From contig DAOUJT010000039.1 of NCBI GenBank assembly GCA_034422315.1, positions 1,488-65,487 on the forward strand: a stretch of DNA of 64,000 bases. The letters run 5' to 3'. The notes beneath the pieces were generated by a model. That model searched no databases. It had not been told where the DNA came from and saw only the letters and a list, made by a program, of their open reading frames with translations. Position numbers and translations under genes: made by a program. Source of the DNA: Chloroflexota bacterium. Lineage in GTDB: Bacteria > Chloroflexota > UBA11872. Every line of letters begins with the position of its first letter. Position 1 is the first letter of the stretch. Below are positions 3,029-62,701 of this stretch, piece by piece.

Positions 3029-3163
3029 GGACACCTGCCCCGCCAAGGTGGACACATTTGGATGGAAACAGGACACATTGCCCTCGAAAGTGGACACATT
3101 CAGCCAAAAAGTGGACACATCCGGCGAAAAACTGGACACATCTGCCCAACGGAGTGGACACAT
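3029..3163 (+). repeat. Seven GGACAC(A/C)T cores at 21-bp period
   Basis: GGACAC at 3029, 3050, 3071, 3092, 3113, 3134, 3156; A-tracts precede the cores. Confidence 0.95.
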
Positions 3164-3250: not shown

Positions 3251-3279
3251 TGGCGGTCAGTACCCAATAGATGTACAAT
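3251..3279 (+). promoter_or_regulatory. Candidate sigma70 promoter of composite element copy A
   Basis: TACAAT at 3274-3279 with a weak -35 (TGGCGG) 17 bp upstream; same position in the element as copies B and C. Confidence 0.4.
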
Positions 3280-3641
3280 AGGGCGTATCGCCCTATCCCG
3301 GTCGGAATCCCGCGTGCCCGCGCTGCTCCTCTACCCGCTGCTTCTGTCGTCCCGTCCCTGGTCGGTCTGCGGCCGGGCCCTGCGTGTCTTCCTGCTGAAC
3401 CTCATCCCCTTCCTTCCCAGCCGATCCACCCACCGCCCGGCTCGCCTAGTGGTCCCGGGCAGTCCGGCAAACGACCTGGCCCATACCCGAAACCGGGCCG
3501 AAATCCAGTCGCCGCCCCTCGACGCCTCTCATCCCCCACGGCTCAACGCCCGCCGACACCATGGCGTTGCGCGCGCCGTGGGCTGTGTCCTGGGCGCCCC
3601 GTCCCCAAACTCGCGCCGATTCCCCCAAGAAATCCGCCAAA

Positions 3642-3694
3642 AACCCTCTCTCGCCAGCGCACCCCCTGTGGGGGTGCGCTGGCGAGAGAGGGTT
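3642..3694. repeat. Perfect 25-bp inverted repeat (hairpin family copy A); may also terminate the ABC operon
   Basis: AACCCTCTCTCGCCAGCGCACCCCC-TGT-GGGGGTGCGCTGGCGAGAGAGGGTT, immediately after the stop at 3701-3703. Confidence 0.95.
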
Positions 3695-3700
3695 CCCCCT

Positions 3701-5581
3701 TTAATCCCCCGTCCGCAACGCCGCCGCGTCGATGTCCTCGCCGCCGGTCGACAGCCCCAGGGTGTACAGGTTGTAGTACAGCCCGGCCTTCGCCAGCAGT
3801 TCCGCGTGCGTGCCGCGTTCCACGATGCGGCCCTGGTCCATCACCAGCACCTCCGTCGCGTTCCGAACCGTCGAGAGCCGGTGCGCGATCACGAAACTGG
3901 TGCGGCCTCGCATCATCGTCTCCATCGCGTCCTGGATAATCCCCTCGGTCTGCGTGTCCACCGAACTCGTCGCCTCGTCCAGCACCAGCACCCGCGGATC
4001 GGTCAGCAGCGCCCGCGCGAACGACACCAGCTGCCGCTGCCCCGTCGACAGCCCGCCGCCCCGTTCCTCGATCGGCGTGTCGTACCCGAACGGCAGGCTC
4101 TCCACGAACTCGTGCAACCGCACCGCCTTCGCCACCTCGATCACCTCGGCCCGCGTCGCATCCGCCCGTCCGTAGGCGATGTTGTCGTGAATGCTCCCGC
4201 TGAACAGAAACGGCTCCTGCAGCACCAACCCGATCTGGCGCCGCAGCGAAGCCTGGCTCACCCGGCGCACGTCGTGCCCGTCGATCCTCACCGATCCGGC
4301 GCTGGCGTCGTAAAACCGCAGCAGCAGGTTGATGATCGTGGTCTTGCCCGCGCCCGTGGCGCCCACCAGCGCAATCCGGTCGCCCGGCTTGGCCACGATC
4401 TCGGCCTCGTGCAGCACCGGCCGGCCCGCCTCGTAGGCAAAGCCCACCCGCTCGAACCGAACCTCGCCCCGCACTGGCGGCAACTCACGAGCGTCGGGCT
4501 GGTCGTGCATGGTTTCGTCGGTGTCCAGGATTTCGAACACCCGCTCGGCCGACGTCATCGCCGCCTGGATCGCCCCCCACCGCGTCGCCAACTCCTGCAC
4601 CGGACCGAAGAACCGCTCGATATACAGCACAAAGGCCGTCACCACCCCCAGCGTCACCGTGTCGGACCCGTCCAGCACGAACGATCCGCCCAACCACAAC
4701 ACCAGCCCGGTCGAGATCGCCGTGAATACCTCCACCGCCGGCTCGGCCGACGACGTAACCGTCATCGCTCGCATCTGCGATTGCGCTTGGGCGTGATTCA
4801 CCTCGTCGAAGCGCGCGGCATTCACGTCCTCGCGAGTGAAGGCCTGGATCACGCGCATTCCCAGGATCGATTCGGCCAGCACCCCGTTCAGCGTCGATGT
4901 CCGCGTCCGCATCATCCGGTAGGCGGCCTGCGCCACCCGAGCAAACACGACCCCGCTCAGCAGCATGAACGGAGCCACCGCCACCGCGATCAGCGTCAGT
5001 TCCCAGCTCAGCAGCGCCATCGCCACCAGGATTCCGATCAGGATCGCCATGTCGGCCACCAGCCCGATCGCCCCCTCGGTCACCGCCTCCCCGACCTGCT
5101 CCACGTCCGACGCCATCCGCCCGATCAGCCGCCCGGTGATCTGCCGGTCGTAAAACCCCAGCGGCAGGGCCTGGTACTTGCGGAACATCTCCATCCGCAT
5201 GGCCTGCAACATGCGCTGGCCGAGGTCCGCGTTGACCACCAGCTGAACCGCCGTGCCGCCGGCCTGGCCAAGGGTCACGCCCAGGAAGACCAGCGCAGCC
5301 ACCGTCAACACCCCGGCGTCGCCGGCTCGGATGCCGTCGTCGATCGCCAACCCGATCAACGCCGGCTGCGCCATCGTCGTCCCGGCAACGACCAGCACCG
5401 TCGCTATGGCAATCAGCAGTCGTCGTCGATCCCGCGCCAGGTATCCCAGCAGGCGCAGCAACACCCGCCGGTCGAAGCCTTCAAAACCGGACTCTTCCTG
5501 GACAAACGTCCCGCGCGCCTGGGACGTCCCCATCCCCATCCCGGACCCCATCCCGGACCCCATCCCCATTCCCATACTCAT
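3701..5581 (-). CDS. ABC exporter, fused TMD-NBD (MsbA/MdlB-like), subunit 2
   Basis: Walker A GATGAGKTT, signature LSTGQRQ, Walker B VLVLDEATSSVD; six TM segments; Met/Gly-rich N-terminus. Confidence 0.95.
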   Translation of the reverse strand: MSMGMGMGSGMGSGMGMGTSQARGTFVQEESGFEGFDRRVLLRLLGYLARDRRRLLIAIATVLVVAGTTMAQPALIGLAIDDGIRAGDAGVLTVAALVFLGVTLGQAGGTAVQLVVNADLGQRMLQAMRMEMFRKYQALPLGFYDRQITGRLIGRMASDVEQVGEAVTEGAIGLVADMAILIGILVAMALLSWELTLIAVAVAPFMLLSGVVFARVAQAAYRMMRTRTSTLNGVLAESILGMRVIQAFTREDVNAARFDEVNHAQAQSQMRAMTVTSSAEPAVEVFTAISTGLVLWLGGSFVLDGSDTVTLGVVTAFVLYIERFFGPVQELATRWGAIQAAMTSAERVFEILDTDETMHDQPDARELPPVRGEVRFERVGFAYEAGRPVLHEAEIVAKPGDRIALVGATGAGKTTIINLLLRFYDASAGSVRIDGHDVRRVSQASLRRQIGLVLQEPFLFSGSIHDNIAYGRADATRAEVIEVAKAVRLHEFVESLPFGYDTPIEERGGGLSTGQRQLVSFARALLTDPRVLVLDEATSSVDTQTEGIIQDAMETMMRGRTSFVIAHRLSTVRNATEVLVMDQGRIVERGTHAELLAKAGLYYNLYTLGLSTGGEDIDAAALRTGD

Positions 5582-7344
5582 GCGCCCGCCGCCTCGGCCG
5601 CCGCCAGGTCCGCCCGCGCCTCCTCGGCGTGCCGTACCTGGAGGTCATAGAGATCGCGGTAGAAGCCGGGTCTCGAGATCAACTCGGCATGTGTTCCCCG
5701 GTCGGCGATTCGCCCCTCGTCCACCACCAGGATTTCGTCCGCGTGTTCCACCGAACTGATGCGCTGCGACACGATGAACGTCGTCCGCCCACCCGCTCGC
5801 CGCCGCAGCGCCTCCTGGATCCGCCGCTCGGTTTCGGTATCCACGCTGCTGGTCGCGTCGTCCAGGATCAGGATCGCCGACTCCCGCAGCAGCGCCCGCG
5901 CGATCGTCAGCCGCTGCCGCTGCCCGCCCGACAGCCCCACGCCACGTTCCCCAATGACAGTCTCGAATCCCTCGGGCATCTCCAGGATGAAGTCATACGC
6001 CTGCGCATCCTTCGCCGCCGCGATCACCTGTTCCAGGTCCGCGTCCGGACTGCCGTACGCGATGTTGTTGCGAACGGTGTCGGAAAAAAGAAACGGATCC
6101 TGCGGCACGATCGACACCGCCGACCGCAGGCTCTGCAAGTCAAAGCTCCGCACGTCCTGGCCATCCACCCGCACGCTGCCGCCCGCCGCGTCGTAATAGC
6201 GCGGAATCAGGTTCAGCAGACTGGACTTCCCAGAACCGGTCGGCCCCACCACGCCGACCACGTCGCCGGTCCCGACCGTCGCGCTGACCCCGGACACAAT
6301 CGCCCGCCGGTTGAACACGATGTCCACACCGTCGTAGTCCACCCGCCCCCTGATGTTCGCCTGCCTGGCAGCGCCCGGCGGACTCTCGATTCCCACCGGC
6401 TCATCCAGCAACCCGAACACTCGATCAGCCGACACCGCTGTGCGCGCTATCTGCTGCACGATGAAGCCCAGCCGCCGCGAAGGCTGGATGAGCCGCGTGA
6501 AGTAGTAGTAGAACGCCAGCAGCGTGCCCACTGAAATCGCCCCATCGATGGCCAGCAGCCCGCCGGCCCAGATCACCACCAGCGAGCCAATGCCCGTCAG
6601 CAGCAGCATTAGCGGCATTGCCTTCGCTCGCAGCCGGATCGGCGCCAGCGCTCGTTGGCGCATCGCTTCGGACTCAACTCCGAACGCCTGGACCTCACGC
6701 TCTTCCGTCGCGAACGCCTTGACCACCCGAATGCCGTTCAGGTTCTCCGTCAGCACCCGCGTCAATTGCGCCTGCTGGCTCCGATACGCCCGCCACATCG
6801 GCCGCACCACGCGTCCGTAGACCACGGCCACGGCCACCATCAGCGCCAGGACCACAAGCGCCATTAGCGTCAGCTGCGCACTGGCAATCACCATTCCCGT
6901 CACGATCACGACGTATATGCCAACCGTCCGCACGGCCTCCATTACCCCGTAGCCGGTGAAGCCCTGCACGGTCCGCGTATCACTGATCGCCAGCGTGATC
7001 ACGTCGCCGCTGTCCACCCGGTCGTAGTAGGCGTACGGCAGGCGCTGCAGCTTGTCGTAGACCTCGTTCCGCAGCTGGCGACTGATTCCCGCCTGGTACC
7101 AGCGCTGACAGAACCTCGCCCCGAACAACGCGGCCCCGCGCAGCACGATCAGCCCCGCGGCCAGCGCCGAGAGCCCCACCAGGCGGGGGCGGTCGCCCGC
7201 CACGATGCCCTCATCAATTACCCGCGCCAGCACCTGCGGAACGACCAGGTCCATGGCCGCGGAAATCACCCAAACCAACACGCTGAGCAGCGCCAGCGGC
7301 CAGTACGAGCGGATATAGGCGAGCGTTCGCCAGATGGACCTTAT
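5578..7344 (-). CDS. ABC exporter, fused TMD-NBD (MdlA-like), subunit 1; start probably the non-canonical ATA at 7344
   Basis: GPTGSGKSS, LSGGQRQ, ILILDDATSSVD. The frame continues upstream of the called GTG (7281) through IRSIWRTLAYIRSYWPLALLS to an ATA overlapping the upstream TAA. Confidence 0.93.
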   Translation of the reverse strand: MRSIWRTLAYIRSYWPLALLSVLVWVISAAMDLVVPQVLARVIDEGIVAGDRPRLVGLSALAAGLIVLRGAALFGARFCQRWYQAGISRQLRNEVYDKLQRLPYAYYDRVDSGDVITLAISDTRTVQGFTGYGVMEAVRTVGIYVVIVTGMVIASAQLTLMALVVLALMVAVAVVYGRVVRPMWRAYRSQQAQLTRVLTENLNGIRVVKAFATEEREVQAFGVESEAMRQRALAPIRLRAKAMPLMLLLTGIGSLVVIWAGGLLAIDGAISVGTLLAFYYYFTRLIQPSRRLGFIVQQIARTAVSADRVFGLLDEPVGIESPPGAARQANIRGRVDYDGVDIVFNRRAIVSGVSATVGTGDVVGVVGPTGSGKSSLLNLIPRYYDAAGGSVRVDGQDVRSFDLQSLRSAVSIVPQDPFLFSDTVRNNIAYGSPDADLEQVIAAAKDAQAYDFILEMPEGFETVIGERGVGLSGGQRQRLTIARALLRESAILILDDATSSVDTETERRIQEALRRRAGGRTTFIVSQRISSVEHADEILVVDEGRIADRGTHAELISRPGFYRDLYDLQVRHAEEARADLAAAEAAGA

Positions 7345-29540: not shown

Positions 29541-30233
29541 TCAGTGACGGCCGTCCAGGCCGCGCTCGCGCAGGAGCGTCTCGATCTGCGTCACGACCTC
29601 CGCCGGGCTGCTGTCCGCGGAATCAATCCACACCGCGTCGGCGGCTGCCGTCAGCGGCGCGTCCGCACGCGTACTGTCGATCCGGTCCCGCGTTTCCAGT
29701 AGATCTCGCACGCTCGCAAGGTCGATATTCTCCCCGTCCGCCCGCCGCTGCTCCCACTTGCGGAGGGCGCGAGTTTCCAGCGGCGCGTCCAGGTACACCT
29801 TCAACTCGGCCTCCGGCCAAACAACCGTGCCAATGTCGCGCCCCAGGGCAACCACGGCGCCTTGCCCAATCACCAGGCGCTGCTCGCCCAGCAACCGAGC
29901 GCGGACTTCCGGCAGCCGCGATACTTCCGAGACAACGGCCTCCACCCTCGCGCTGTACACGCCCTCGGTCACGTCTTCGCCCTCGGACAGCACCCGCGTG
30001 CGATAGGCGCCGTCGGCCTCCGGACGGAATGCCAGGTTCAGATTCGCAATCGCCGCCAGCACCTCGTTGGCGTCTTCCGGGTCTGCGCCCGCTCGCAGCG
30101 CCGCCAGCGCCGCCGCGCGGTAGAACAGCCCGCTATCCACGCACACATACCCGCATCGCTCGGCCAGTAACTGTCCGACGGTGCTTTTCCCCGACCCCAC
30201 GGGTCCATCGATCGTGATGACCGGCGCTGACAT
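29541..30233 (-). CDS. cmk: Cytidylate kinase
   Basis: ITIDGPVGSGKST, DSGLFYRA, GRDIGT, RDRIDSTR. Confidence 0.96.
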   Translation of the reverse strand: MSAPVITIDGPVGSGKSTVGQLLAERCGYVCVDSGLFYRAAALAALRAGADPEDANEVLAAIANLNLAFRPEADGAYRTRVLSEGEDVTEGVYSARVEAVVSEVSRLPEVRARLLGEQRLVIGQGAVVALGRDIGTVVWPEAELKVYLDAPLETRALRKWEQRRADGENIDLASVRDLLETRDRIDSTRADAPLTAAADAVWIDSADSSPAEVVTQIETLLRERGLDGRH

Positions 30234-30280
30234 CAGGCGCACCAAACCCACAGACACCTTCGGGGACGGTCGCCCAGTAT

Positions 30281-30480
30281 AAAAAAAAGCCCACACCCCG
30301 CCCTCGCCGCTCGCATTCGCCGGGGGCCAGGTTCAGACCGATCAGCGGCGCTCGTGGCAGCGTTCGCCCTGAGCGCATCCCGTCACCGGGAAATCCGGTC
30401 AGTCGCCAGCTCAACCTTGCGATCCCAAGACCCCGGGCTCGCAGTCCTCTTGCGGCACGCCGCAGTCGGTCGTGGGTCAC
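30281..30480 (-). ncRNA. Rod-shaped ncRNA of about 190 nt, probably 6S (SsrS)-like, ending in a U8 tract
   Basis: Six nested complementary segments found by eye (CCCAC/GTGGG, GCCGC/GCGGC, GCCCGGGGTC/GGCCCCCGGC, GATC/GATC, TGGCG/CGCTGCCA, ACCGG-ATTTC-CCGGT). CTGAACC lies at a position similar to CUUGAACC of E. coli 6S. Confidence 0.55.
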
Positions 30481-30588
30481 CCTGATTTGCGAGGGGCGCG
30501 CAGCGGCAGCGCAACCGGCCGTCGTGGGGATCGGATAGGCCTGAGAATGGGTGGACGGGGGCAGAAATCGGTGGGGGGTGAAGGGGGG

Positions 30589-30644
30589 AGCGCTCTCTCG
30601 CCAGCCCGAACCCCTATGGGGGGTTCGGGCTGGCGAGAGAGCGC
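30589..30644. repeat. Perfect 26-bp inverted repeat (hairpin family copy B)
   Basis: AGCGCTCTCTCGCCAGCCCGAACCCC-TATG-GGGGTTCGGGCTGGCGAGAGAGCGCT; flanks GGGTGAAGGGGGG and GGCGGATTTTT. Confidence 0.95.
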
Positions 30645-30875
30645 TTAGGCGGATTTTTTGGCGGGGCTGCGACGAAGGTTGGGGCTGCGAGGGGACGGCA
30701 GGACGGCCCCAGCGACGCTGGGGGCGCGGACGTGGCGAGGGGGTGGGGCGGAGGCGTCTCGATCGGCCTCTACGCAAGGCGAAGAACGAGCGGGGACGCT
30801 CGGTGACGGAAGGGGCGAGCAGGCGGAGGAGGCGGGCGAGCATGGAGGTTTCGGGGGATGGGATAGAGTGCTTCC

Positions 30876-30904
30876 ATTGTATACGAGATGATTACAAAAG
30901 GCAA
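30876..30904 (-). promoter_or_regulatory. sigma70-type promoter in composite element copy B
   Basis: TTGCCT-17 bp-TACAAT on the minus strand. Confidence 0.65.
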
Positions 30905-31019
30905 GGATGATAGGGGTGGGAAGAAAGGGAAAGGGCAGAGGAGTGAGAAAGGAGCCGGAGAAGAAAGGGAGCGTGGAGGGAGAGGTTCGGAAGAGGCGGG
31001 GGCGGGCGGAACCTGGGAT

Positions 31020-31112
31020 GTGTTCACCCGGTCGGGGCAAGGTGTCCAGTTTCGGGGCCAATGTGTCCCGTTTTTTGCCGAATGTGTCCACTTTGGTGGG
31101 GCATGTGTCCAG
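31020..31112 (-). repeat. Five GGACACAT-type cores at 21-22 bp period (same family as 3029-3163, inverted)
   Basis: Plus-strand GTGTTC/GTGTCC at 31020, 31042, 31063, 31084, 31105. Confidence 0.93.
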
Positions 31113-31204
31113 TTTCTTAGCGGCGAGCGCGCCCTCGGTTCGGGGGTGTCGGTACGGGACGGTGGGGCCGGGGACCGGGCACGGAAGGAAGTCGAGATCC
31201 CCTC

Positions 31205-31347
31205 CTTCGGCAAGCTCAGGACAGGCCACTTCGACAAGCTCAGGACAGGCCACTTCGACAAGCTCAGGACAGGCCGCTTCGACAAGCTCAGGACAGGCCG
31301 CTTCGACAAGCTCAGGACAGGCCGCTTCGACAGGCTCAGGGCAGGCT
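31205..31347. repeat. Six tandem 24-bp REP-like units CTTCGACAAGCTCAGGACAGGCC(A/G)
   Basis: Direct inspection; units start at 31205, 31229, 31253, 31277, 31301, 31325. Confidence 0.95.
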
Positions 31348-31415
31348 CTCGGCGGCTCTCGGGATGCCAGAGCGGGCGTGCGGGGCGGGGGGGAGGCGCC
31401 GCCGGGGAAGGCGGG

Positions 31416-31487
31416 TGCTGGCAATGATGTCAATGACAGCAGTGCAATCAGCGCATGCGTTGCTGGCACTGCAAGCAATGCAGGCAG
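31416..31487. repeat. Eight 9-bp units TGCnnGCAn (internally palindromic)
   Basis: tgctggcaa tgatgtcaa tgacagcag tgcaatcag cgcatgcgt tgctggcac tgcaagcaa tgcaggcag. Confidence 0.8.
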
Positions 31488-31559
31488 GGATGTGGTTCGA
31501 CTCGGGTCCTCTCCTTCGGCAGAGACCTTTGCGTAACTCAAGGTTGGTTGCGCGGAAGA

Positions 31560-31610
31560 CCCCTCACCCGCCGCCGAAGACGGCGCCGGCCTCTCCCCTC
31601 GGAGAGGCAA
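31560..31610. repeat. REP-like CCCTCACCC...CCTCTCCC...GGAGAGG element
   Basis: ccctcacccgccgccgaagacggcgccggcctctcccctcggagaggc. Confidence 0.5.
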
Positions 31611-31649
31611 GAGGCTGCGGCTCCGAGGAAGAAGGGTTATGCAAAGGTC

Positions 31650-31721
31650 TCTCGGCAGGCTCAGGACAGGCCGCTTCGACAGGCTCAGGACAGGCCACTT
31701 GGACAAGCTCGGGACAGGCTC
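31650..31721. repeat. Three further tandem 24-bp REP-like units
   Basis: Same consensus as 31205-31347, more degenerate. Confidence 0.9.
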
Positions 31722-32078: not shown

Positions 32079-32447
32079 ATGGCTACTGACGCCGCCCCGC
32101 TCACCCGAGACGACCTGCGCGACGAACTACAACGCGCACTGACCCACTACGCGACGAAGGCCGATCTGGCCGAGTTGCGCGACGAACTGCGTAGCGCGAT
32201 GGCGCACTACGCGACCAAAGCCGACCTGGCTGAACTGCGAGATGAACTCCGCGTTGAATTCAATCGCACGTTGACCCACTACGCGACCAAGGCTGCCGTC
32301 GCTGACCTGCGAGCCGACGTCCAGGCGACGCGTGCCGAGTTCAAGGCCGACCTCCACAGCCAGACCCGCTGGATGGTCATCGCCGTTCTGGGATCGGTCA
32401 GCGCCGCCGCCACCGTCACCGGACTGATCGTCCGATTCTTCAGCTAG
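32079..32447 (+). CDS. CCDC90/DUF1640-like coiled-coil protein with HYATKADL repeats and a C-terminal TM anchor
   Basis: GGGAG SD; three HYATKA units (20 and 24 aa apart); TRWMVIAVLG... anchor. Confidence 0.8.
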   Translation: MATDAAPLTRDDLRDELQRALTHYATKADLAELRDELRSAMAHYATKADLAELRDELRVEFNRTLTHYATKAAVADLRADVQATRAEFKADLHSQTRWMVIAVLGSVSAAATVTGLIVRFFS

Positions 32448-32571
32448 ACGCCCGGCGGCAAGCGGCAACCGACGCAGGCTAGGTTGAAGACGCCCTGCAA
32501 ACCTGTCCGTCCGCAGACAACCCTGAAGCGACGAGCAATCATCCAGGCGTCGAATTGGTATCCGGACGGGA

Positions 32572-32799
32572 TTGGAGTTGCTTACCCTGACAGTTGACGC
32601 CGCCCGCTCACCCACGACGACCTACGCGCCGAACTGCAGCGCGTTGACGCACTATGCGACCAGAGCCGCCGTGGCCGACCTGCGCGCCAACGTTCACGCC
32701 CTGGAAGCACGCCTGATCAGATGGATACTCGGCTTGATGCTCAGCGCGACCGGCTTGGCCGTTGCAATCACGGTCGCCGTTGATCGCCTGTCGACCTAG
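32572..32799 (+). CDS. Short paralogue of 32079-32447 with two compensating frameshifts (possible pseudogene)
   Basis: DNA aligns to the first copy with a 1-bp and a 2-bp deletion, scrambling 13 codons; HYAT and the TM anchor are retained. Confidence 0.6.
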   Translation: MELLTLTVDAARSPTTTYAPNCSALTHYATRAAVADLRANVHALEARLIRWILGLMLSATGLAVAITVAVDRLST

Positions 32800-57401: not shown

Positions 57402-57425
57402 AAGAGTTTTTTCCAAAAAACTCTT
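57402..57425. other. AT-rich perfect 11-bp inverted repeat (terminator- or operator-like)
   Basis: AAGAGTTTTTT-CC-AAAAAACTCTT, 21 bp after the stop at 57380. Confidence 0.6.
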
Positions 57426-57644
57426 GAGGCAAATCGGGGGGCATTTTGGCGGGGTGGGGGAGGAAGGGTGGAGGGGAGAGGGAAGAGAAGTGAGAGCGGA
57501 TAGGCACGGGGCTGGGGACGGGGTGCGGATCGGGTGGGTGAGGTCTTGGTGGGACGCTGGACGGCGCGGTGAGCCGAGGTCGGAGTTTGGACGGGGTTGA
57601 GGGCGGGCGCCTGGCGGCGGAATTTGGGTGGGGGTGAAGGGGGG

Positions 57645-57697
57645 AACTGTCGCTGGCCAGCCGGCCCCCAGAGGGGGCCGGCTGGCCAGCGACAGTT
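57645..57697. repeat. Perfect 25-bp inverted repeat (hairpin family copy C)
   Basis: AACTGTCGCTGGCCAGCCGGCCCCC-AGA-GGGGGCCGGCTGGCCAGCGACAGTT; flanks GGGTGAAGGGGGG and GGCGGATTTTT. Confidence 0.95.
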
Positions 57698-57916
57698 TGG
57701 GCGGATTTTTCGGGCGGCAGGGGAAGGCGAGGCGTGAGTGAGGCAAGAAGGGGAGAGGGCAGAGGGCAGAGGAGTGAGAGCGGAAGGGGGTGGGTAGCGA
57801 CGGGTCTCCACGCAAGATGCGGAGCAAGCGGGGGCGGGGGGTGCGGGGGGTGAGCCGTTGGAGGAGGCGGGTGAGCATGGAGGGTTCGGGGGATGGATGT
57901 GGAATCGGGCGCCTCT

Positions 57917-57945
57917 AGTGTACACTGGGTGGTTACGAAGGGCAA
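57917..57945 (-). promoter_or_regulatory. sigma70-type promoter in composite element copy C
   Basis: TTGCCC-17 bp-TACACT on the minus strand, homologous to 30876-30904. Confidence 0.6.
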
Positions 57946-57986: not shown

Positions 57987-58019
57987 GTGGTTCCCTTCGA
58001 CAGGCTCAGGGCAGGCTCT
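57987..58019. repeat. Single REP-like unit; 33 bp identical to 60849-60881
   Basis: GTGGTTCCCTTCGACAGGCTCAGGGCAGGCTCT. Confidence 0.93.
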
Positions 58020-58085
58020 CCGGGGACGCCGGGATGGGATCGGGCTGCTGGGGTCGGAGGGTGAGCCGGGGCCGGTGATGGCGGG

Positions 58086-58157
58086 TGCTGGCATTGATGT
58101 CATTGCCAGCAGTGCAATCAGTGCATGCGGTGCCGGCATTGCCGGAAACGCTGGGAG
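58086..58157. repeat. 9-bp TGCnnGCAn microrepeat block homologous to 31416-31487
   Basis: 58081-58129 matches 31411-31459 at 45 of 49 positions. Confidence 0.88.
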
Positions 58158-58447
58158 GGATGGCGAGTCGGCGACGCCGGGATGACAGGGAGATCGTGGC
58201 GCTGAGGGCGGGGGGTGAGGGCAGCATGTGGGCGCGGGGCTGAATGGGGTGGGGTGTATGCACAGGGGAGCCTGTAGCGCCATGGCCAGCCATCGCGCGA
58301 TGCGCCAACGAGCCGCCAGTTCCCTTGAAGTCCGCACGTCACATGAGCACAGGCCGCCGGGTGCGCGTAGACTCGCCTTAGGGTGCCCACCGTGAGAATC
58401 TCACTCGTGCCGGCTCCAGCGCCCCGCCGGTACCAGGGCGAGTCCCG

Positions 58448-59923
58448 ATGCTAAAGCGTCTAGAGATTGGTAACTTCAAGTCTTGGGACGGTCAGCATCC
58501 CATCGACTTTGGCCGCATCACAGGGCTTTTTGGCCCAAACAGTTCGGGCAAGAGTAGCATCATACACCTGCTGCTTCTCCTAAAGCAGACAGTCGAATCC
58601 ACAGATCCTGCATCCGTATTGGACTTCGGAAGTGAGACCAAAGGGTACTTCGACTTTGGGGGCTTTGAAGATGTAATCACGAATCATGATTCACAGAAGA
58701 GTCTATCCTTCAACCTGCACTGGATACCAATTACTACTGACGCTCAACGTGCAATGTCAACTATACAAGAGATAGTTCTCTCGGGCGTTATATCTGCTTC
58801 ACCAGCAGAAACCCGCAAGGAAATTTCAGTCGATTACTTGAAATACACAATAGAGTGCATGCTTGATGCTGACGAGTACAACGAGGCCGAAGATTGCCAC
58901 GGAATTACATTTGGTGGAATACCTGCCCTCATATCTGTACAAACGTTGCTCAAATCAAGCGGATCATATGAGCTGCAATTGGAAGTCGATGGCTTCTTTG
59001 AAGACTTTTCGGCTTTTGACGATGGATCGACTCCAATTGGCTTTTATAGGTTCCATCCATCTGATCTGGATGTCCTGACGCAGGGACTATATCTTCGCGA
59101 CGAAGAGGAGATTGAAGGCACGGGCAAGAACTTAGTGACAACCGTCTCTGAGTATGACATAGAAAGAGTGATACAAAGAGCTGAAAACCACACGATCCGC
59201 TTGCTTGAACGCGTAATATATCTTGGTCCACTGCGCAATTACCCGAAGCGTGATTATAGATGGACTGGCGCAGCTCCGGCGACTGTTGGGCATCGAGGAG
59301 AACAGACCATTCAGGTTCTTCTTTCGGATAAAACGGCAACAGTCGTGGGAGTCTCGACCTGGATGCGAAAGCTCGGACTCGCCGACTCGTTGTCACTCAA
59401 GCAAGTCGACTCGGACGGTCGAATATGGGAACCGATTGTTGAGCAGCGGGGCGAGGGGCCAAAGGTGAACATAGCTGACGTAGGATTCGGCGTATCACAG
59501 ATTATGCCGGTCATTGTTGCTCTCCTGTCAGCACCTCCGGGAGCGCTAGTTATTTTGGAGCATCCCGACATCCACCTCCATCCAAGAGCGCAAAGCGAAC
59601 TTGCAGACTTGCTCGTCGAAGTTGTTAGTACGAGTGATATCCAAGTCCTTGTGGAGAGTCACAGCGAGCATTTGTTGGCGCGGATTCAGCGGAGGATATC
59701 GGAGTCTTCCAGGGGAGAGGGTAGTCTGAGCCCTGAGGATGTGCGGTTGTATTTCTGCGAGCAGGAGAAGGGAAGGTCGAAGCTGACGCCGCTGGAGATG
59801 CAGCCGTCGGGGGTTATAACGAACTGGCCTCGTGACTTCTTTGGAGACATGTTGGCCGAGCGAATGGCGTTGAGTGGGTTCTATCCGAAATCTGAAGACC
59901 ACACACAGACTGCTGACGGCTGA
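58448..59923 (+). CDS. ABC-type ATPase (AAA_15/AAA_21-like) with a DUF3696-like C-terminus
   Basis: IGNFKS, Walker A GPNSSGKS, DVGFGVSQ signature, LEHPDIHLHP Walker B/D-loop, ESHSEH, NWPRDFFG; GC clearly below the flanks. Confidence 0.9.
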   Translation: MLKRLEIGNFKSWDGQHPIDFGRITGLFGPNSSGKSSIIHLLLLLKQTVESTDPASVLDFGSETKGYFDFGGFEDVITNHDSQKSLSFNLHWIPITTDAQRAMSTIQEIVLSGVISASPAETRKEISVDYLKYTIECMLDADEYNEAEDCHGITFGGIPALISVQTLLKSSGSYELQLEVDGFFEDFSAFDDGSTPIGFYRFHPSDLDVLTQGLYLRDEEEIEGTGKNLVTTVSEYDIERVIQRAENHTIRLLERVIYLGPLRNYPKRDYRWTGAAPATVGHRGEQTIQVLLSDKTATVVGVSTWMRKLGLADSLSLKQVDSDGRIWEPIVEQRGEGPKVNIADVGFGVSQIMPVIVALLSAPPGALVILEHPDIHLHPRAQSELADLLVEVVSTSDIQVLVESHSEHLLARIQRRISESSRGEGSLSPEDVRLYFCEQEKGRSKLTPLEMQPSGVITNWPRDFFGDMLAERMALSGFYPKSEDHTQTADG

Positions 59924-59931
59924 AAACACAG

Positions 59932-60432
59932 TTGTCGACCACCGAATCGCCGACTTGGATCATTGATACAAATGTTTGGATTGTGGCTCAACCGGGGAGT
60001 CATGCCGATACGGATTGCCATACGAACTGCTTGCAGTTTGTAGACAGATTAGACAACAGCAAGGAACGCATTGCCGTCGATGACGGCTATCTCATTTTTA
60101 GCGAGTACTTTCGGCTGCTATCTCAGCAACTCGCACCTCACGATGCTCTCATCAGGCTAATGGCGCAAGGCAGGGTAGTGGAAATGCACGTCAAGGTTGA
60201 TGACGAAGGCGTCGTCCTTCCTGATGAGCTTGCGGGTATCGTCCATGATCGAGATGACCGCAAGTTTGTGGCGGTCTCCCTGGCTTGCTCGCCGCCTGCG
60301 CCGATAGTGAATGCGACAGACTCGGATTGGGTGGATTGGGAGGAATGTCTACGAGATCACGGTGTAGAGGTTATTCAGTTGTGCCCGGAGGTCGTGCACG
60401 CGCCACGGGACTCCGCGGAGCGTCGCGCGTAG
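59932..60432 (+). CDS. PIN-like nuclease-fold protein
   Basis: WIIDTNV, FSEYF, DRDDRKFVAV, NATDSDW give four spaced acidic positions; 8 bp after the ATPase. Confidence 0.75.
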   Translation: MSTTESPTWIIDTNVWIVAQPGSHADTDCHTNCLQFVDRLDNSKERIAVDDGYLIFSEYFRLLSQQLAPHDALIRLMAQGRVVEMHVKVDDEGVVLPDELAGIVHDRDDRKFVAVSLACSPPAPIVNATDSDWVDWEECLRDHGVEVIQLCPEVVHAPRDSAERRA

Positions 60433-60447
60433 GTTGTTTGCTATCGG

Positions 60448-60688
60448 CTAGTTGGTCTCGCTCGGTTCGGCAATGAGGAGAGCGAGATAGGTGAGGGAGC
60501 GGAACATGGGATCGCCGTGATTCTGCTCCGGGGGATCGCGGTAGATCGCGAGGAATCTCGTCGGCGGTCAGGCCGAAGTGCCGCTTCGCGTCGCGGTCCA
60601 AAGCCTGCCGGATTTCTTCCGGCGTGACCTGGATGTGTTCGTATTCAACGGGCAGCCATTCGGGCCGCGTTTCGACGGTGGTTGTCAT
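60448..60688 (-). pseudogene. Small antitoxin-like gene (about 79 aa) with a 1-nt insertion
   Basis: MTTTVETRPEW...HFGLTADE; removing one A (gag-A-ttc) continues FLAIYRDPPEQNHGDPMFRSLTYLALLIAEPSETN to TAG; span 241 nt. Confidence 0.6.
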
Positions 60689-60848
60689 TGGGGATGCGTT
60701 GCGGTGCTCGAGGTCGGCGTAGTGCGGGGGAGGGAATGGTGGGCCGGGGGAGCTGATCGGACGGGGTGAGGCGGTGGGCCGGGATTGACCATGGCGCTGG
60801 GTCCCGGCCGAGGACGCCGGGATGGCGGAGGGGGGTGCTGGGGCTTGT

Positions 60849-60949
60849 GTGGTTCCCTTCGACAGGCTCAGGGCAGGCTCTACGGGCCTCCGATGGACTC
60901 CGGGGGGGCTCACCACGAACGGGGTGGGTGAGGCTCACCACGAACGGGG
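60849..60949. repeat. REP-like cluster: a 33-bp CTTCGACAGGCTCAG unit plus two GGCTCACCACGAACGGGG copies
   Basis: 60849-60881; 60907-60924 and 60932-60949 (25-bp period). Confidence 0.9.
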
Positions 60950-60961
60950 GTGGAGGCTGGT

Positions 60962-62701
60962 TTAGGGGACGGGTTGGTATTGGAGGAGGGCTGAGCGGCC
61001 TACGACATCGAGGATTCGAACCAGTGTTTCCCGGCCGTCGGCGTCGGTGAGGCGGAGACCTTCGCCAGGGGCGAAGTGGACGGGCTGGGGTTGGCCCTGG
61101 TTGATCGCGATGTTGTTGGCGTAGAGATAAGTTCGGTCGCTGGCATCGCGTTTCGGATTCAGGCGGCCTTTGAGGGTGGGAAGGTGACCGACCGCCTCGG
61201 GGAAGATGACGCTGCCGCCTTGCGACATCGTCTGAAGGTCGAGCGTCAGCGCGCCCCGGCTGGGCGTCCATTGGCGTTCGAGGTGCGCCGCGTGTCCGGG
61301 GGCGGCGGCGAATACGGTCATGGGGAGGTGGGACGTGTATAGCTCGACCGACGCCTCGCCATCGCTATTGGTGGTGGAGCGTTTCCAGGTCTTGTTTGGA
61401 AACAACGCAAGGACATCGGCGCCAGGCAAGGGCTGACCGGCCGATCGAACGGTGATGACCGCACTGGCGGGGCTGTGTTCGTGGGTGGCGGCGGGGATGG
61501 TGAGGCGGACCTCGGAGTCGTCGATGACCCGGTACTCGGGCAGCTGCCCGCAGAGTTCCCAGGTCTCGCGACGAATGATGGGCACACCGTCGCCGCGGCG
61601 TTCCATAAAGTACCGCCGCTCCTCCGAGCCCTGAATGCCCCCAACCGGCAAACGCGCCAAAACAGAAGTCAACGCTTCGTTGCGTGTGACCTGGCGCGTT
61701 TCCATGCTCTCCACGGTGAGGTTGTTGGGCAGCGAGCCGGGCGACTGGATTTCCAGGCGGTCAGCGAACATCGAGAGCCGAATCTTGCTGCCGCGCATCG
61801 AGTAGTCGCGATGCACCACGGCGTTGACGAGGGCTTCGAACAAGGCCCGGTGGCTGTATTGGGGAAGGTCTACGCGCCCCGGATCCTTGCGGGCGGCGAC
61901 CTGCATATTGCGCAGGGCGAAGGCGACGGCCTGGGCGATCTGCCGGTTCAACGGGCCGCTAATTTCCTGCGCGTCGATCTGGCCGGAGGCACGGTCGTTA
62001 CCCCGATACCGGGTGGCGGTGATACCGGCGTTTGGCAGCCACCGCTGGGGATCCGGCGCGCATAGCAAGACGCCGGCGACGGTGGCGCGCGGGATGCCAG
62101 TCTCATCGTTTGCGAGAAGAGCCAATCTGCCGAGCGCCACCTCGGGTTCGGCGGCGCCTTCGGCGCTCAATAGTGGTTTCCAAAGGGACTCGTCCAGGGT
62201 GTTGATTCCGGTGTCCGGAACCGTCTGTTCATCAAAGGACCGGTACCGGGCTTGCGCGCGACGTTGCGCCAAGCGCAGCCACTCATCGCCGATCATCCTT
62301 CGCTTGGAGCCTCCGACGCGGATGTACCGCTGGCCGGATCGCTCGTGCGGGGAATCGCCGGCGGGAACGTCGACGATCAGTAACCGCTTGCCGCCGGGGA
62401 GTTGCATGTGCTGCGTGCGGATACGTACGGGCGGCTCGATGGCGTCGGAGCTGACTTCCACGACGTATCGATCCAACGCGCTGAGTTGCTCACGCGTCAT
62501 GTCCTGCACTTCGCCGTCATCGGTGACGCCGCAAAGCAGGACGCCGCCGTCAGCGTTGGCGAATGCCACGATCTCGTCCGCCAGATCCCCGCGTTCAGGA
62601 CTTCTGGGTTGGTCTCCGGCGAACTGAACCTGCTTGAATTCCCAGGCGCTGTCCTTGCCCAGTTGCAGCCGGCGGGTGATTTCTTGGTTGCTGTGGGTCA
62701 T
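60962..62701 (-). CDS. Schlafen/AlbA_2 + HATPase_c_4 (RecG-C-like) protein with a beta-rich C-terminal extension
   Basis: WEFK, DEIVAFANADGGVLLCGVTDDG (AlbA_2); EALVNAVVHRDY, SPGSL, RNEAL, MERRGDG (HATPase); no terminal HTH. Confidence 0.88.
   Translation of the reverse strand: MTHSNQEITRRLQLGKDSAWEFKQVQFAGDQPRSPERGDLADEIVAFANADGGVLLCGVTDDGEVQDMTREQLSALDRYVVEVSSDAIEPPVRIRTQHMQLPGGKRLLIVDVPAGDSPHERSGQRYIRVGGSKRRMIGDEWLRLAQRRAQARYRSFDEQTVPDTGINTLDESLWKPLLSAEGAAEPEVALGRLALLANDETGIPRATVAGVLLCAPDPQRWLPNAGITATRYRGNDRASGQIDAQEISGPLNRQIAQAVAFALRNMQVAARKDPGRVDLPQYSHRALFEALVNAVVHRDYSMRGSKIRLSMFADRLEIQSPGSLPNNLTVESMETRQVTRNEALTSVLARLPVGGIQGSEERRYFMERRGDGVPIIRRETWELCGQLPEYRVIDDSEVRLTIPAATHEHSPASAVITVRSAGQPLPGADVLALFPNKTWKRSTTNSDGEASVELYTSHLPMTVFAAAPGHAAHLERQWTPSRGALTLDLQTMSQGGSVIFPEAVGHLPTLKGRLNPKRDASDRTYLYANNIAINQGQPQPVHFAPGEGLRLTDADGRETLVRILDVVGRSALLQYQPVP

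Follow-up and report, generated by a model that had tools for sequence, protein, structure and literature searches.

Within 64 kb of DNA from a Chloroflexota bacterium (assembly GCA_034422315.1, contig DAOUJT010000039.1; hereafter the window), three intergenic regions carry copies of one composite element, copy A on the forward strand and copies B and C on the reverse strand, each described here along its promoter strand (Table 1). The element consists of a sigma-70-like promoter, a C-rich stretch, and a long perfect hairpin, preceded in copies A and B by an array of 21-bp direct repeats (iterons). We judge the chances to be about even that it represents a self-contained, noncoding transcription cassette that is derived from insertion sequences (ISs) of the IS481 family and dispersed among high-GC, uncultured Chloroflexota.

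Copies outside the window were sought by scanning 185,579 species genomes for the hairpin flank and stem (AAATCCGCC..GCCAGC..GCTGGC), a pattern that matched at least 119 stretches. Among the matches listed, at least 19 stretches contain the long hairpin, all in Chloroflexota metagenome-assembled genomes (MAGs), 18 with perfect arms of 23 to 28 bp and one (L057) with a bulge; the other stretches listed (about 100) are chance matches with stems of at most 9 bp. Three further copies lie on two metagenome contigs (L129 and L131, which with a partial copy, L130, were all that the metagenome scans yielded) and in a protein-guided locus (L134). The resulting set comprises 25 hairpins, 3 from the window and 22 from further loci (20 in named Chloroflexota MAGs and 2 on metagenome contigs), and the presence of a promoter could be judged in the 22 with sufficient upstream sequence. 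Cassettes span about 0.45 to 0.7 kb, reaching about 1.1 kb in L040. Pattern scans of IMG/VR for a phage or viral origin gave only unrelated coding repeats and chance matches, blastn searches of PLSDB and INPHARED returned nothing, and a literature search on the motif or the element found nothing relevant.

All 14 arrays and 19 of the 22 promoters stand in the order array, promoter, hairpin, in a fixed orientation and amid unrelated flanking sequences. Outside the cassettes, promoter and array are both absent from the window and from ~110 kb of relatives' DNA, in which a covariance model detects only one hairpin copy. Because order and orientation are constant across loci and these parts have no other occurrences in the DNA examined, their linkage is not a chance pile-up. 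The initial annotation had proposed a multicopy, modular promoter cassette with a structured transcript; its six modules were each found at or near their coordinates and above chance, and the 22 further loci bear out the modular cassette, but no structure besides the terminal hairpin was found in the transcript.

The iteron unit reads AAAAsTGrACACAT followed by seven variable, GC-rich bases and is repeated five to eight times per array. The period is exactly 21 bp, with the A-tracts in phase; the last unit stands 22 to 23 bp away and lacks an A-tract, and the first often reads ACACCT. Exact matches to GGACACAT number 10 in the window against 1.6 expected, and 9 of the 10 fall in the arrays originally noted in copies A and B. 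Of the 25 hairpins, 14 are preceded by an array, whose orientation is the same in every case; none of the 25 cassettes contains a reversed iteron. No further arrays of this family appeared in 1.2 Mb of fetched DNA, which gave only unrelated 7-residue coding repeats (two viral contigs). Readings of the iteron or the promoter as DnaA boxes, PhoB or GlnR boxes, or sigma-54 sites were rejected, as the conserved bases and spacing do not fit such sites.

The origin of the iterons is indicated by IS left ends at three loci (L133, L141, and L142, in intact or frameshifted IS copies), which read TGTGyAGACC-GGGGACATCA-TGrACAC..-GGrGACATrG-TGrACACAT, followed by 47 nt and then ATG. Their inner repeat, TGrACACAT, is the iteron core, so that the IS search suggested at the outset leads to an IS481-family left end in the same clade. 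At two other loci (L056 and L134), an array of five to seven units joins the same 47-nt leader and the first ~40 codons of a transposase, the encoded N terminus being 63 to 66% identical to the L133 IS481 transposase (mean of 80% in the DNA alignment). At these loci, the final pair of iterons aligns with the pair of TGrACAC units in the IS end, and the spacing is 23 bp in both. This alignment and the shared leader indicate that the arrays are multimerized IS481 left-end binding sites. We infer, reasonably but short of a demonstration, that a helix-turn-helix (HTH) domain of the IS481 type binds the iterons. True IS right ends lie 5' of the promoters in L088 and L049, and a degenerate terminus resembling the IS right end, GGyCTGGACA, follows the array in L005 and L074, the latter also having a GTCCAGAC-like left terminus.

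The promoter has the consensus CTTGCCCTTCGTAATCA-n4-GTGTACAmT and lies 100 to 700 nt 5' of the hairpin. Promoters of this type occur nowhere in the window besides the three copies; the two-part promoter described earlier stands in B and C, but A retains only the −10. The −10 is embedded in GTGTACAC, often as the perfect palindrome AGTGTACACT, which is one base off the iteron core GTGrACAC. About 28 to 44 nt past the −10, a purine patch (GGAG, GGAA, or GAAA) is followed after 6 to 8 nt by ATG or GTG, and the 37-bp leaders of B and C match at 35 positions, as reported at first. The C/T-richness noted for the promoter strand was recovered in all three copies (57%, 62%, and 66% C+T in A, B, and C, versus 51% for the window), with C, at 40 to 49%, as its driver.

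Across loci, the transcribed parts contain 48% C and 22% G. This C-rich, G-poor middle is 100 to 600 nt long, and its body is not conserved between copies; merely ~100 nt separate promoter and hairpin in L106. Such a composition is that of a Rho-loading (rut-like) site, and the cassette RNA is predicted to be a strong Rho-loading substrate. Searches of the window with Rfam and ARAGORN returned no match at the Rfam gathering score and no ARAGORN match; at E ≤ 5, the hairpins match only generic models (P35, mir-TAR, and mir-4436), far under the Rfam threshold. A function as an anti-Shine-Dalgarno sponge was rejected, CCUCC being not enriched in the transcribed parts (36 observed versus 47 expected).

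The window contains exactly three perfect hairpins of 25 to 26 bp with conserved flanks, 220 to 360 nt 3' of the promoter as first described, and their centers are 3 to 5 nt long. A repeat search found none close to them elsewhere in the 64 kb, and a covariance model run on the window returned exactly these three, whose stems differ from one another at 8 or more positions. In the family consensus, a duplicated AATCCGCC motif precedes a 25-bp GC-rich hairpin; the perfect arms are 23 to 28 bp long, with AAAAy before and TCCCCCC after them, and the folding energy is −58 to −61 kcal/mol. Conserved independently of the search pattern are the 3' flank TCCCCCCTTCACCCCC, the CTCTC part of the stem, the A-tracts, and the second upstream copy of AATCCGCC. 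A derivation of the hairpin arm from the 5' end of the transposase gene was rejected: copy A shows a likeness of 13 to 15 nt, but tests with the consensus arm and with a second IS copy gave no significant match.

In a 22-sequence alignment, RNAalifold finds 25 pairs, 13 of which are changed on both sides with pairing kept. The changes are almost purely Watson-Crick. Mismatches are nearly nil, and G-U occupies one cell of the alignment. One copy (L025) has G-U on the sense strand and one (L129) has a sense-strand C-A mismatch, equivalent to G-U on the antisense strand, so that neither strand is favored. Five of the 22 copies are gap-free palindromes of 54 to 56 bp centered on TTAA or CTAG, and 11 have a 3-nt center. 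This pattern points away from a classical structured noncoding RNA, such as the transcript originally suggested, and toward a constraint acting on the DNA itself or on both strands. Two readings appear compatible with it: a constraint on both strands, as for a two-way terminator or insulator or for a DNA palindrome read by a protein, or a DNA-level process by which one arm is copied onto its partner. On the antisense strand, a hairpin-plus-U-tract terminator is supplied by the A-rich 5' flank.

Table 1 Positions of the cassette parts and of associated repeats in the window
Feature	Position	Strand	Description
Copy A iteron array	3029..3163	+	7 units of AAAAsTGrACACAT + 7 nt; 21-bp spacing, last 22 bp
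Copy A −10	3271..3279	+	ATGTACAAT; no good −35; L057 ortholog GGTGTACAAT
Copy A predicted transcribed stretch	3286..3629	+	Conserved 5' leader GGAATCCCGCGTGCC, then C-rich variable part
Copy A 3' module	3630..3712	+	AAATCCGCC, 25-bp perfect hairpin 3642-3694, C-rich flank
Hairpin A arms	3642-3666/3670-3694	+	25-bp perfect
Copy B iteron array	31018..31116	-	5 units; last spacing 22 bp
Copy B promoter	30876..30904	-	TTGCCTTTTGTAATCATCTCGTATACAAT; TTGCCT-17-TACAAT
Copy B predicted transcribed stretch	30662..30869	-	Leader 30825-30861, ATG at 30843; rest C-rich, noncoding
Copy B 3' module	30570..30661	-	AAATCCGCC 30648-30656, 26-bp perfect hairpin 30589-30645, flank TCCCCCCTTCACCCCCC
Hairpin B arms	30589-30614/30620-30645	-	26-bp perfect
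Copy C promoter	57917..57945	-	TTGCCCTTCGTAACCACCCAGTGTACACT; TTGCCC..TACACT; −10 inside 10-bp palindrome AGTGTACACT
Copy C predicted transcribed stretch	57714..57910	-	Leader 57860-57896; 56% C
Copy C 3' module	57625..57713	-	AAATCCGCC 57700-57708, 25-bp perfect hairpin 57645-57697, flank TCCCCCCTTCACCCCC
Hairpin C arms	57645-57669/57673-57697	-	25-bp perfect
24-bp tandem repeat	31205..31346		CTTCGACAAGCTCAGGACAGGCCG, 5.9 copies; separate family
B/C upstream block	31325..31492 (C copy 57995-58162)	-	TGCTGGCA-type palindromes; 77-79% identical; not family-wide

The insertion history of copy B can be read from its site 5' of cmk, where it lies ~300 nt from the −10 of cmk itself (about 30276-30281). 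Orthologous sites were fetched via Cmk homologs from four relatives (L137, L138, L139, and L140; 64 to 88% Cmk identity), and none of the four has an array, promoter, or hairpin there. The spacer between cmk and the divergent gene for a thiamine pyrophosphate (TPP) enzyme measures 134 to 229 bp in L137, L138, and L140, 1390 bp in L139 (OZ240251.1), and ~2.47 kb in the window. Homology with the relatives ends at ~30303, just 5' of the TATACT box of cmk, whose promoter is conserved. The empty sites, which the initial annotation had suggested looking for, and this break in homology indicate that copy B is a lineage-specific insertion and not the cmk promoter. The filled site is a 2.2-kb composite of several insertions with unreadable junctions. 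The 251-amino-acid (aa) cmk open reading frame (ORF) probably starts too early (30233-30296 region), the ATG of the relatives corresponding to 30233, and the TATACT −10 lies within this overlong ORF.

L057 contains the ortholog of copy A, next to an ABC transporter whose protein sequence is 97% identical. The homology breaks off exactly at the first iteron, and copy A carries ~160 to 170 nt in its transcribed stretch that have no counterpart in L057. The genes next to cassettes have unrelated functions (sulfite reductase, aminotransferase, valyl-tRNA synthetase, MoeA, aldehyde dehydrogenase, cmk, and others). Among 19 cassettes, the gene 3' of the hairpin is co-directional in 12, starting ~60 to 300 nt past the hairpin, and convergent in 7, including copies A and C. 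In copy A, 7 nt separate the hairpin from the stop codon of the ABC transporter gene (3701-5581, − strand), which is convergent, and copy C has a convergent gene pair ahead of it and a low-GC, defense-like island behind it. Genes of the window were separated from spurious ORFs by codon-position GC content and Pfam matches.

Several observations weigh against an IS481-derived, HTH-controlled transcription cassette. The transcription start site, the transcript, and its 3' end are predictions from sequence, and the sense strand of the hairpin lacks a U-tract, making termination there uncertain. The array is not obligatory, 11 of the 25 cassettes being without one. No IS481 copy was found in the window by tblastn with the IS481 transposase, in agreement with the initial annotation, which saw no transposase there (the search did not extend to a full domain scan of all ORFs), and no HTH gene is present in the window. 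A search for a stand-alone HTH regulator with the IS481 N-terminal domain gave short fragments only, and the two inspected (L141 and L142) are frameshifted IS copies. The match of the −10 palindrome to the iteron core at 7 of 8 positions is only suggestive of an operator, many positions having been inspected. The invariance of AAATCCGCC, GCCAGC, and GCTGGC among copies was imposed by the search pattern. Between A and L057 the cassette is 68 to 82% identical, compared with 79% at third codon positions of the adjacent gene, which gives no sign of purifying selection; the case for constraint thus rests on the module pattern among nonorthologous copies. Terminal inverted repeats, target duplications, and near-identical copies were not seen.

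The last point bears on a possible but unlikely explanation, that of a selfish, nonautonomous element moved in trans by an IS481-family transposase, in which the array would be the transposase-binding end and the promoter and RNA would be incidental. Such an element would account for the match of the iterons to IS481 left-end inner repeats, the presence or absence at the cmk site depending on the relative, the end of A/L057 homology at the first iteron, the terminus past the array in L005 and L074 (with its left counterpart in L074), and the nearly neutral conservation in close relatives. It would not account for the 11 cassettes without an array, nor for the one-way orientation of all units in 25 cassettes, none of which has an inverted second end. 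Target-site duplications and near-identical copies were not seen, the stems of A, B, and C differing at 8 or more positions. Moreover, promoter, leader, hairpin, and flanks are conserved in nonorthologous copies and the middle is not, which is unlike pure junk. That the regions are instead chance clusters of unrelated intergenic repeats (REP-like hairpins, tandem repeats, and promoter-like words) in long spacers is very improbable. Independent families do share these spacers (the 24-bp tandem, a whalefall-1-like element, an AT-rich palindrome, and GAGCCTGTCGAAC units), and two of the six modules first listed are such passengers, but the linkage counts, together with the lack of promoter or array elsewhere in the window or in the relatives' DNA, largely refute both this explanation and the chance co-occurrence that the initial annotation had allowed for.

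The transcribed part invites two further explanations. Its C-rich, G-poor, rut-like leader, opening with a Shine-Dalgarno-like patch and a start codon, and the 12 co-directional genes at short distance would suit a cis-acting 5' regulatory leader that combines a promoter with an attenuator, either Rho-dependent or formed by the hairpin. We regard this as improbable: 7 of the 19 next genes are convergent, downstream functions are unrelated, the promoter-hairpin gap in L106 is only ~100 nt, and cmk has its own conserved promoter and lacks any cassette in relatives. The same patch, 6 to 8 nt ahead of the ATG or GTG in nearly all copies, and similar N termini in B, C, and L040 (MLARLLRLL, MLTRLLQRL, and MLIPLVRRL) would fit a small Leu/Arg/Pro-rich protein, which is nonetheless extremely improbable. 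The frame from start codon to 3' module is 0, 1, or 2 in 9, 4, and 6 copies, respectively, and the orthologs L005 and L074 differ in frame, which together argue against a conserved translated product. Ortholog substitutions are not concentrated at third codon positions (by inspection), stops are not consistent, ORFs pass through the hairpin for 60 to >230 codons, there is no Pfam match, and the residue bias follows from the C/T-rich composition. It is also very unlikely that the unit acts as DNA, its phased iterons and palindrome forming an origin-, partition-, or pac-like nucleoprotein site tied to a terminase module. The architecture recalls an iteron origin, with five to eight direct repeats two helical turns apart and phased A-tracts; the hairpin behaves as a DNA palindrome (Watson-Crick only, five copies gap-free); an array lies directly 5' and a hairpin directly 3' of a terminase gene in L056 and L134; and the terminase operon of L132 has the same palindromic −10. 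However, an IS481 left-end remnant, fused to that gene, accounts for the terminase-adjacent array, most terminase loci have neither array nor hairpin, no cassette is linked to a rep or par gene, and searches of phage, plasmid, and viral-contig collections turned up nothing similar.

The terminase loci merit description in their own right. In L056 (3488-4936) and L134 (6001-7455), the terminase large subunit (TerL) has the first ~40 residues of the IS481 transposase as its N terminus, the product of a gene fusion brought about by an IS end. A role of this HTH-terminase as the universal iteron binder was rejected, since the HTH is fused to TerL in one lineage and cassette-bearing genomes such as OZ240251.1 have TerL without it. 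Absence of array and hairpin from most TerL loci (L132, L133, L135, and L136) makes the terminase link secondary. TerL, 60 to 90% identical across many Chloroflexota genomes, belongs to an orphan-looking packaging module with a portal-like gene and a small gene (79 to 96 aa), often followed by an enolase-superfamily gene and with no capsid or tail genes nearby (the portal, small-gene, TerL block spans 5879-9302 in L133, 3582-7323 in L135, 3787-7302 in L136, and 7787-9311 in L132). At 7680-7740 in L132, AGTGTACACT forms the −10 of two divergent promoter-like sites, one directed toward the small-gene/TerL operon and the other facing a C-rich, ORF-like stretch (MSARVFRLL..) that ends at an AT-rich palindrome (7090-7134).

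The cassette is a variant among mosaic intergenic elements, mobile promoters, and IS derivatives; a new class is not established. Enterobacterial bacterial interspersed mosaic elements (BIMEs) and pneumococcal BOX elements are intergenic, multicopy mosaics of short modules in fixed order. The cassettes share with them a variable number of internal units, foldable palindromes, and possible effects on transcription or RNA ends, but carry a full promoter, an IS-derived array of five to eight phased 21-bp iterons, and one 25-bp perfect hairpin, have no sequence in common with them, and contain a middle that is unique to each copy and variable in length. In iteron plasmids (RepE of F, pi of R6K, and RepA of pPS10), the same protein reads direct repeats and a related inverted repeat over the promoter. 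The cassettes likewise combine direct repeats two helical turns apart with a related inverted repeat overlapping the promoter, and their 14 arrays (5 to 8 units at 21 bp) fit the 3 to 8 direct, helically phased repeats of 17 to 22 bp of an iteron origin. They differ in that the promoter has no rep gene, copies are many and chromosomal, and protein binding is putative; a rep gene, AT-rich element, and DnaA boxes are missing, a C-rich stretch follows the promoter, and the neighbors are metabolic.

As in miniature inverted-repeat transposable elements (MITEs) derived from IS481, a transposase-binding sequence is shared with an autonomous IS in the same genomes, the iteron being the left-end inner repeat with the 23-bp spacing kept in the last two units. 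Presence/absence polymorphism is a further likeness, as is the junction, persisting at two arrays, with the leader and first codons of the transposase gene. Unlike such derivatives, the cassettes lack a transposase and TGT..ACA terminal inverted repeats, no target duplication was seen, and the site is multiplied five- to eightfold at one end only. Terminal inverted repeats matching IS ends are absent from the 25 cassettes, of which only L005 and L074 have a right-end-like terminus. The cmk site is empty in four relatives, and in the window, where it is filled, it is a composite whose junctions are unreadable.

REP elements and REPINs resemble the cassette hairpin as GC-rich extragenic palindromes with coevolving arms near gene ends. 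The cassette hairpin, however, does not have the form of an imperfect palindrome of 20 to 40 bp with a GTAG/CGTC tag: it lacks the tag, has longer and perfect stems, is linked to a promoter, and occurs, in the DNA examined, in few, diverged copies (at least 8 stem differences among those in the window and a single copy in ~110 kb of relatives' DNA). No RAYT gene was seen, a whole-genome RAYT search being outside the analysis. With bidirectional terminators and small RNA genes the cassettes share the antisense GC-rich hairpin with its U-tract and the layout of promoter, short noncoding RNA, and hairpin. They differ in having no U-tract on the sense strand, no conserved RNA body or shared seed, and no Rfam match (none at gathering score in the window regions); as a small RNA family they would have conserved promoter-like and hairpin modules and no reading frame, with a body that differs between copies. 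A ToxIN-like type III toxin-antitoxin system does not fit, the array lying 5' of the promoter and no conserved gene following the hairpin, and neither does a small protein-coding gene, for the reasons of frame given above. Homologous promoter segments that precede unrelated genes, in one genome or in different ones, have been described as putative mobile promoters (PMC3575422). The cassette promoter, which stands beside nonhomologous genes, answers to this description, but it brings its own upstream array and downstream hairpin, and about a third of the cassettes face a convergent gene, indicating a closed unit.

Other repeat families occupy the same spacers. The CTTCGACAGGCTCAG unit, listed initially as a module, is enriched (9 matches versus 0.14 expected) but is not part of the cassette: it belongs to the 24-bp tandem of copy B and also occurs outside the three regions (31652-31719 and 60857). 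Further members of the CTTCGACAAGCTCAGGACAGGCCG family lie at 31652-31719, 57995-58009, and 60857-60871, and GAGCCTGTCGAA(C/G) units are found in many fetched loci at varying positions, even inside the transcribed part. The 24-bp unit has the look of a widespread, REP-like short repeat that is unconnected with the cassette. The palindromic block reported upstream of B and C is indeed common to them but is confined to these two copies. At 31521-31653 lies a MITE-like element with terminal inverted repeats GAGACCTTTGCATAAC and GTTACGCAAAGGTCTC and the core GGGAGAGG..GGTGAGGGG, which gives a subthreshold whalefall-1 match (27.9 bits versus a gathering score of 37); its 3' half occurs in at least nine other Chloroflexota loci, and the IS481 copy of L133 lies within the loop of one of these elements, where a 5-bp duplication (CCCAG) is apparent. 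A perfect AT-rich palindrome, AAGAGTTTTTTGGAAAAAACTCTT, with a conserved CCCCGCCAAAA flank is located at 57402-57425 in this 65% GC genome, immediately 3' of the stop codon in the 56709-57380 gene; it also occurs in L007, L022, L025, and L132, on either side of the GC-rich hairpin.

The surroundings of the copies include several other features. Upstream of copy A are toxin-antitoxin-like genes (1083-1547, − strand; 2194-2457 and 2454-2885, + strand), which encode a PIN-domain protein, an AF2212-like antitoxin, and, overlapping the antitoxin gene by ATGA, a 143-aa protein with no Pfam match; this block is missing 5' of the orthologous array in L057. The region beside copy C (58448-62701) has a low GC content (52 to 56% at 58 to 60 kb) and resembles an acquired defense island, with an AAA_21/AAA_15/DUF3696 ATPase (58448-59923, + strand) and a protein with Schlafen AlbA_2 and HATPase_c_4 domains (60962-62701, − strand). 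Near copy B, 32079-32447 (+ strand) and ~32521-32795 encode small coiled-coil proteins with a C-terminal hydrophobic tail and internal repeats of 60 to 72 nt (..THYATKADLAELRDEL..); their homologs are two small coiled-coil genes that the L139 (OZ240251.1) spacer contains, and Pfam gives only weak coiled-coil matches.

Under the reading of the element as an IS481-derived transcription cassette, an HTH protein of the IS481 type probably controls the promoter. The array would be a multimerized landing pad for the N-terminal HTH of the transposase or a derivative of it, and binding on one face of bent DNA, together with occupancy of the −10 palindrome, would control the promoter. From there an unstructured, C-rich RNA would be made, with the hairpin as its 3' end; the hairpin would also terminate transcription arriving from the other side and so insulate the cassette. 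Copies may have spread by past mobility or by recombination seeded from IS ends. A bolder extension, which we hold to be doubtful, is a transposon-built cis-regulatory network, in which the IS481 HTH (or a derivative) would read its own multiplied ends and switch dispersed C-rich noncoding RNAs with palindromic insulators. In such a network, the cassettes could serve the host as a device for sensing or titrating the transposase, or they could form an IS-encoded regulon; in a remoter variant, the arrays would be recognition sites for the orphan portal-terminase module of the clade.

For uncultured Chloroflexota, the cassette provides a marker for annotating their unusually long intergenic regions, and it yields a defined, testable DNA motif for the IS481-type HTH domain. 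Its perfect palindromes of 50 to 56 bp, whose arms coevolve without G-U intermediates, bear on how long palindromes are maintained in bacteria. If the cassettes are selfish debris, they would define a new type of nonautonomous element with one transposon-like end only. The rewiring of transposon ends into regulatory units is well known in eukaryotes and, to our knowledge, little documented in bacteria. If the cassettes are transcribed and controlled as we suggest, they would offer a clear example from bacteria of how a transposon end can be multiplied, wired to a promoter, and dispersed as a regulatory unit.

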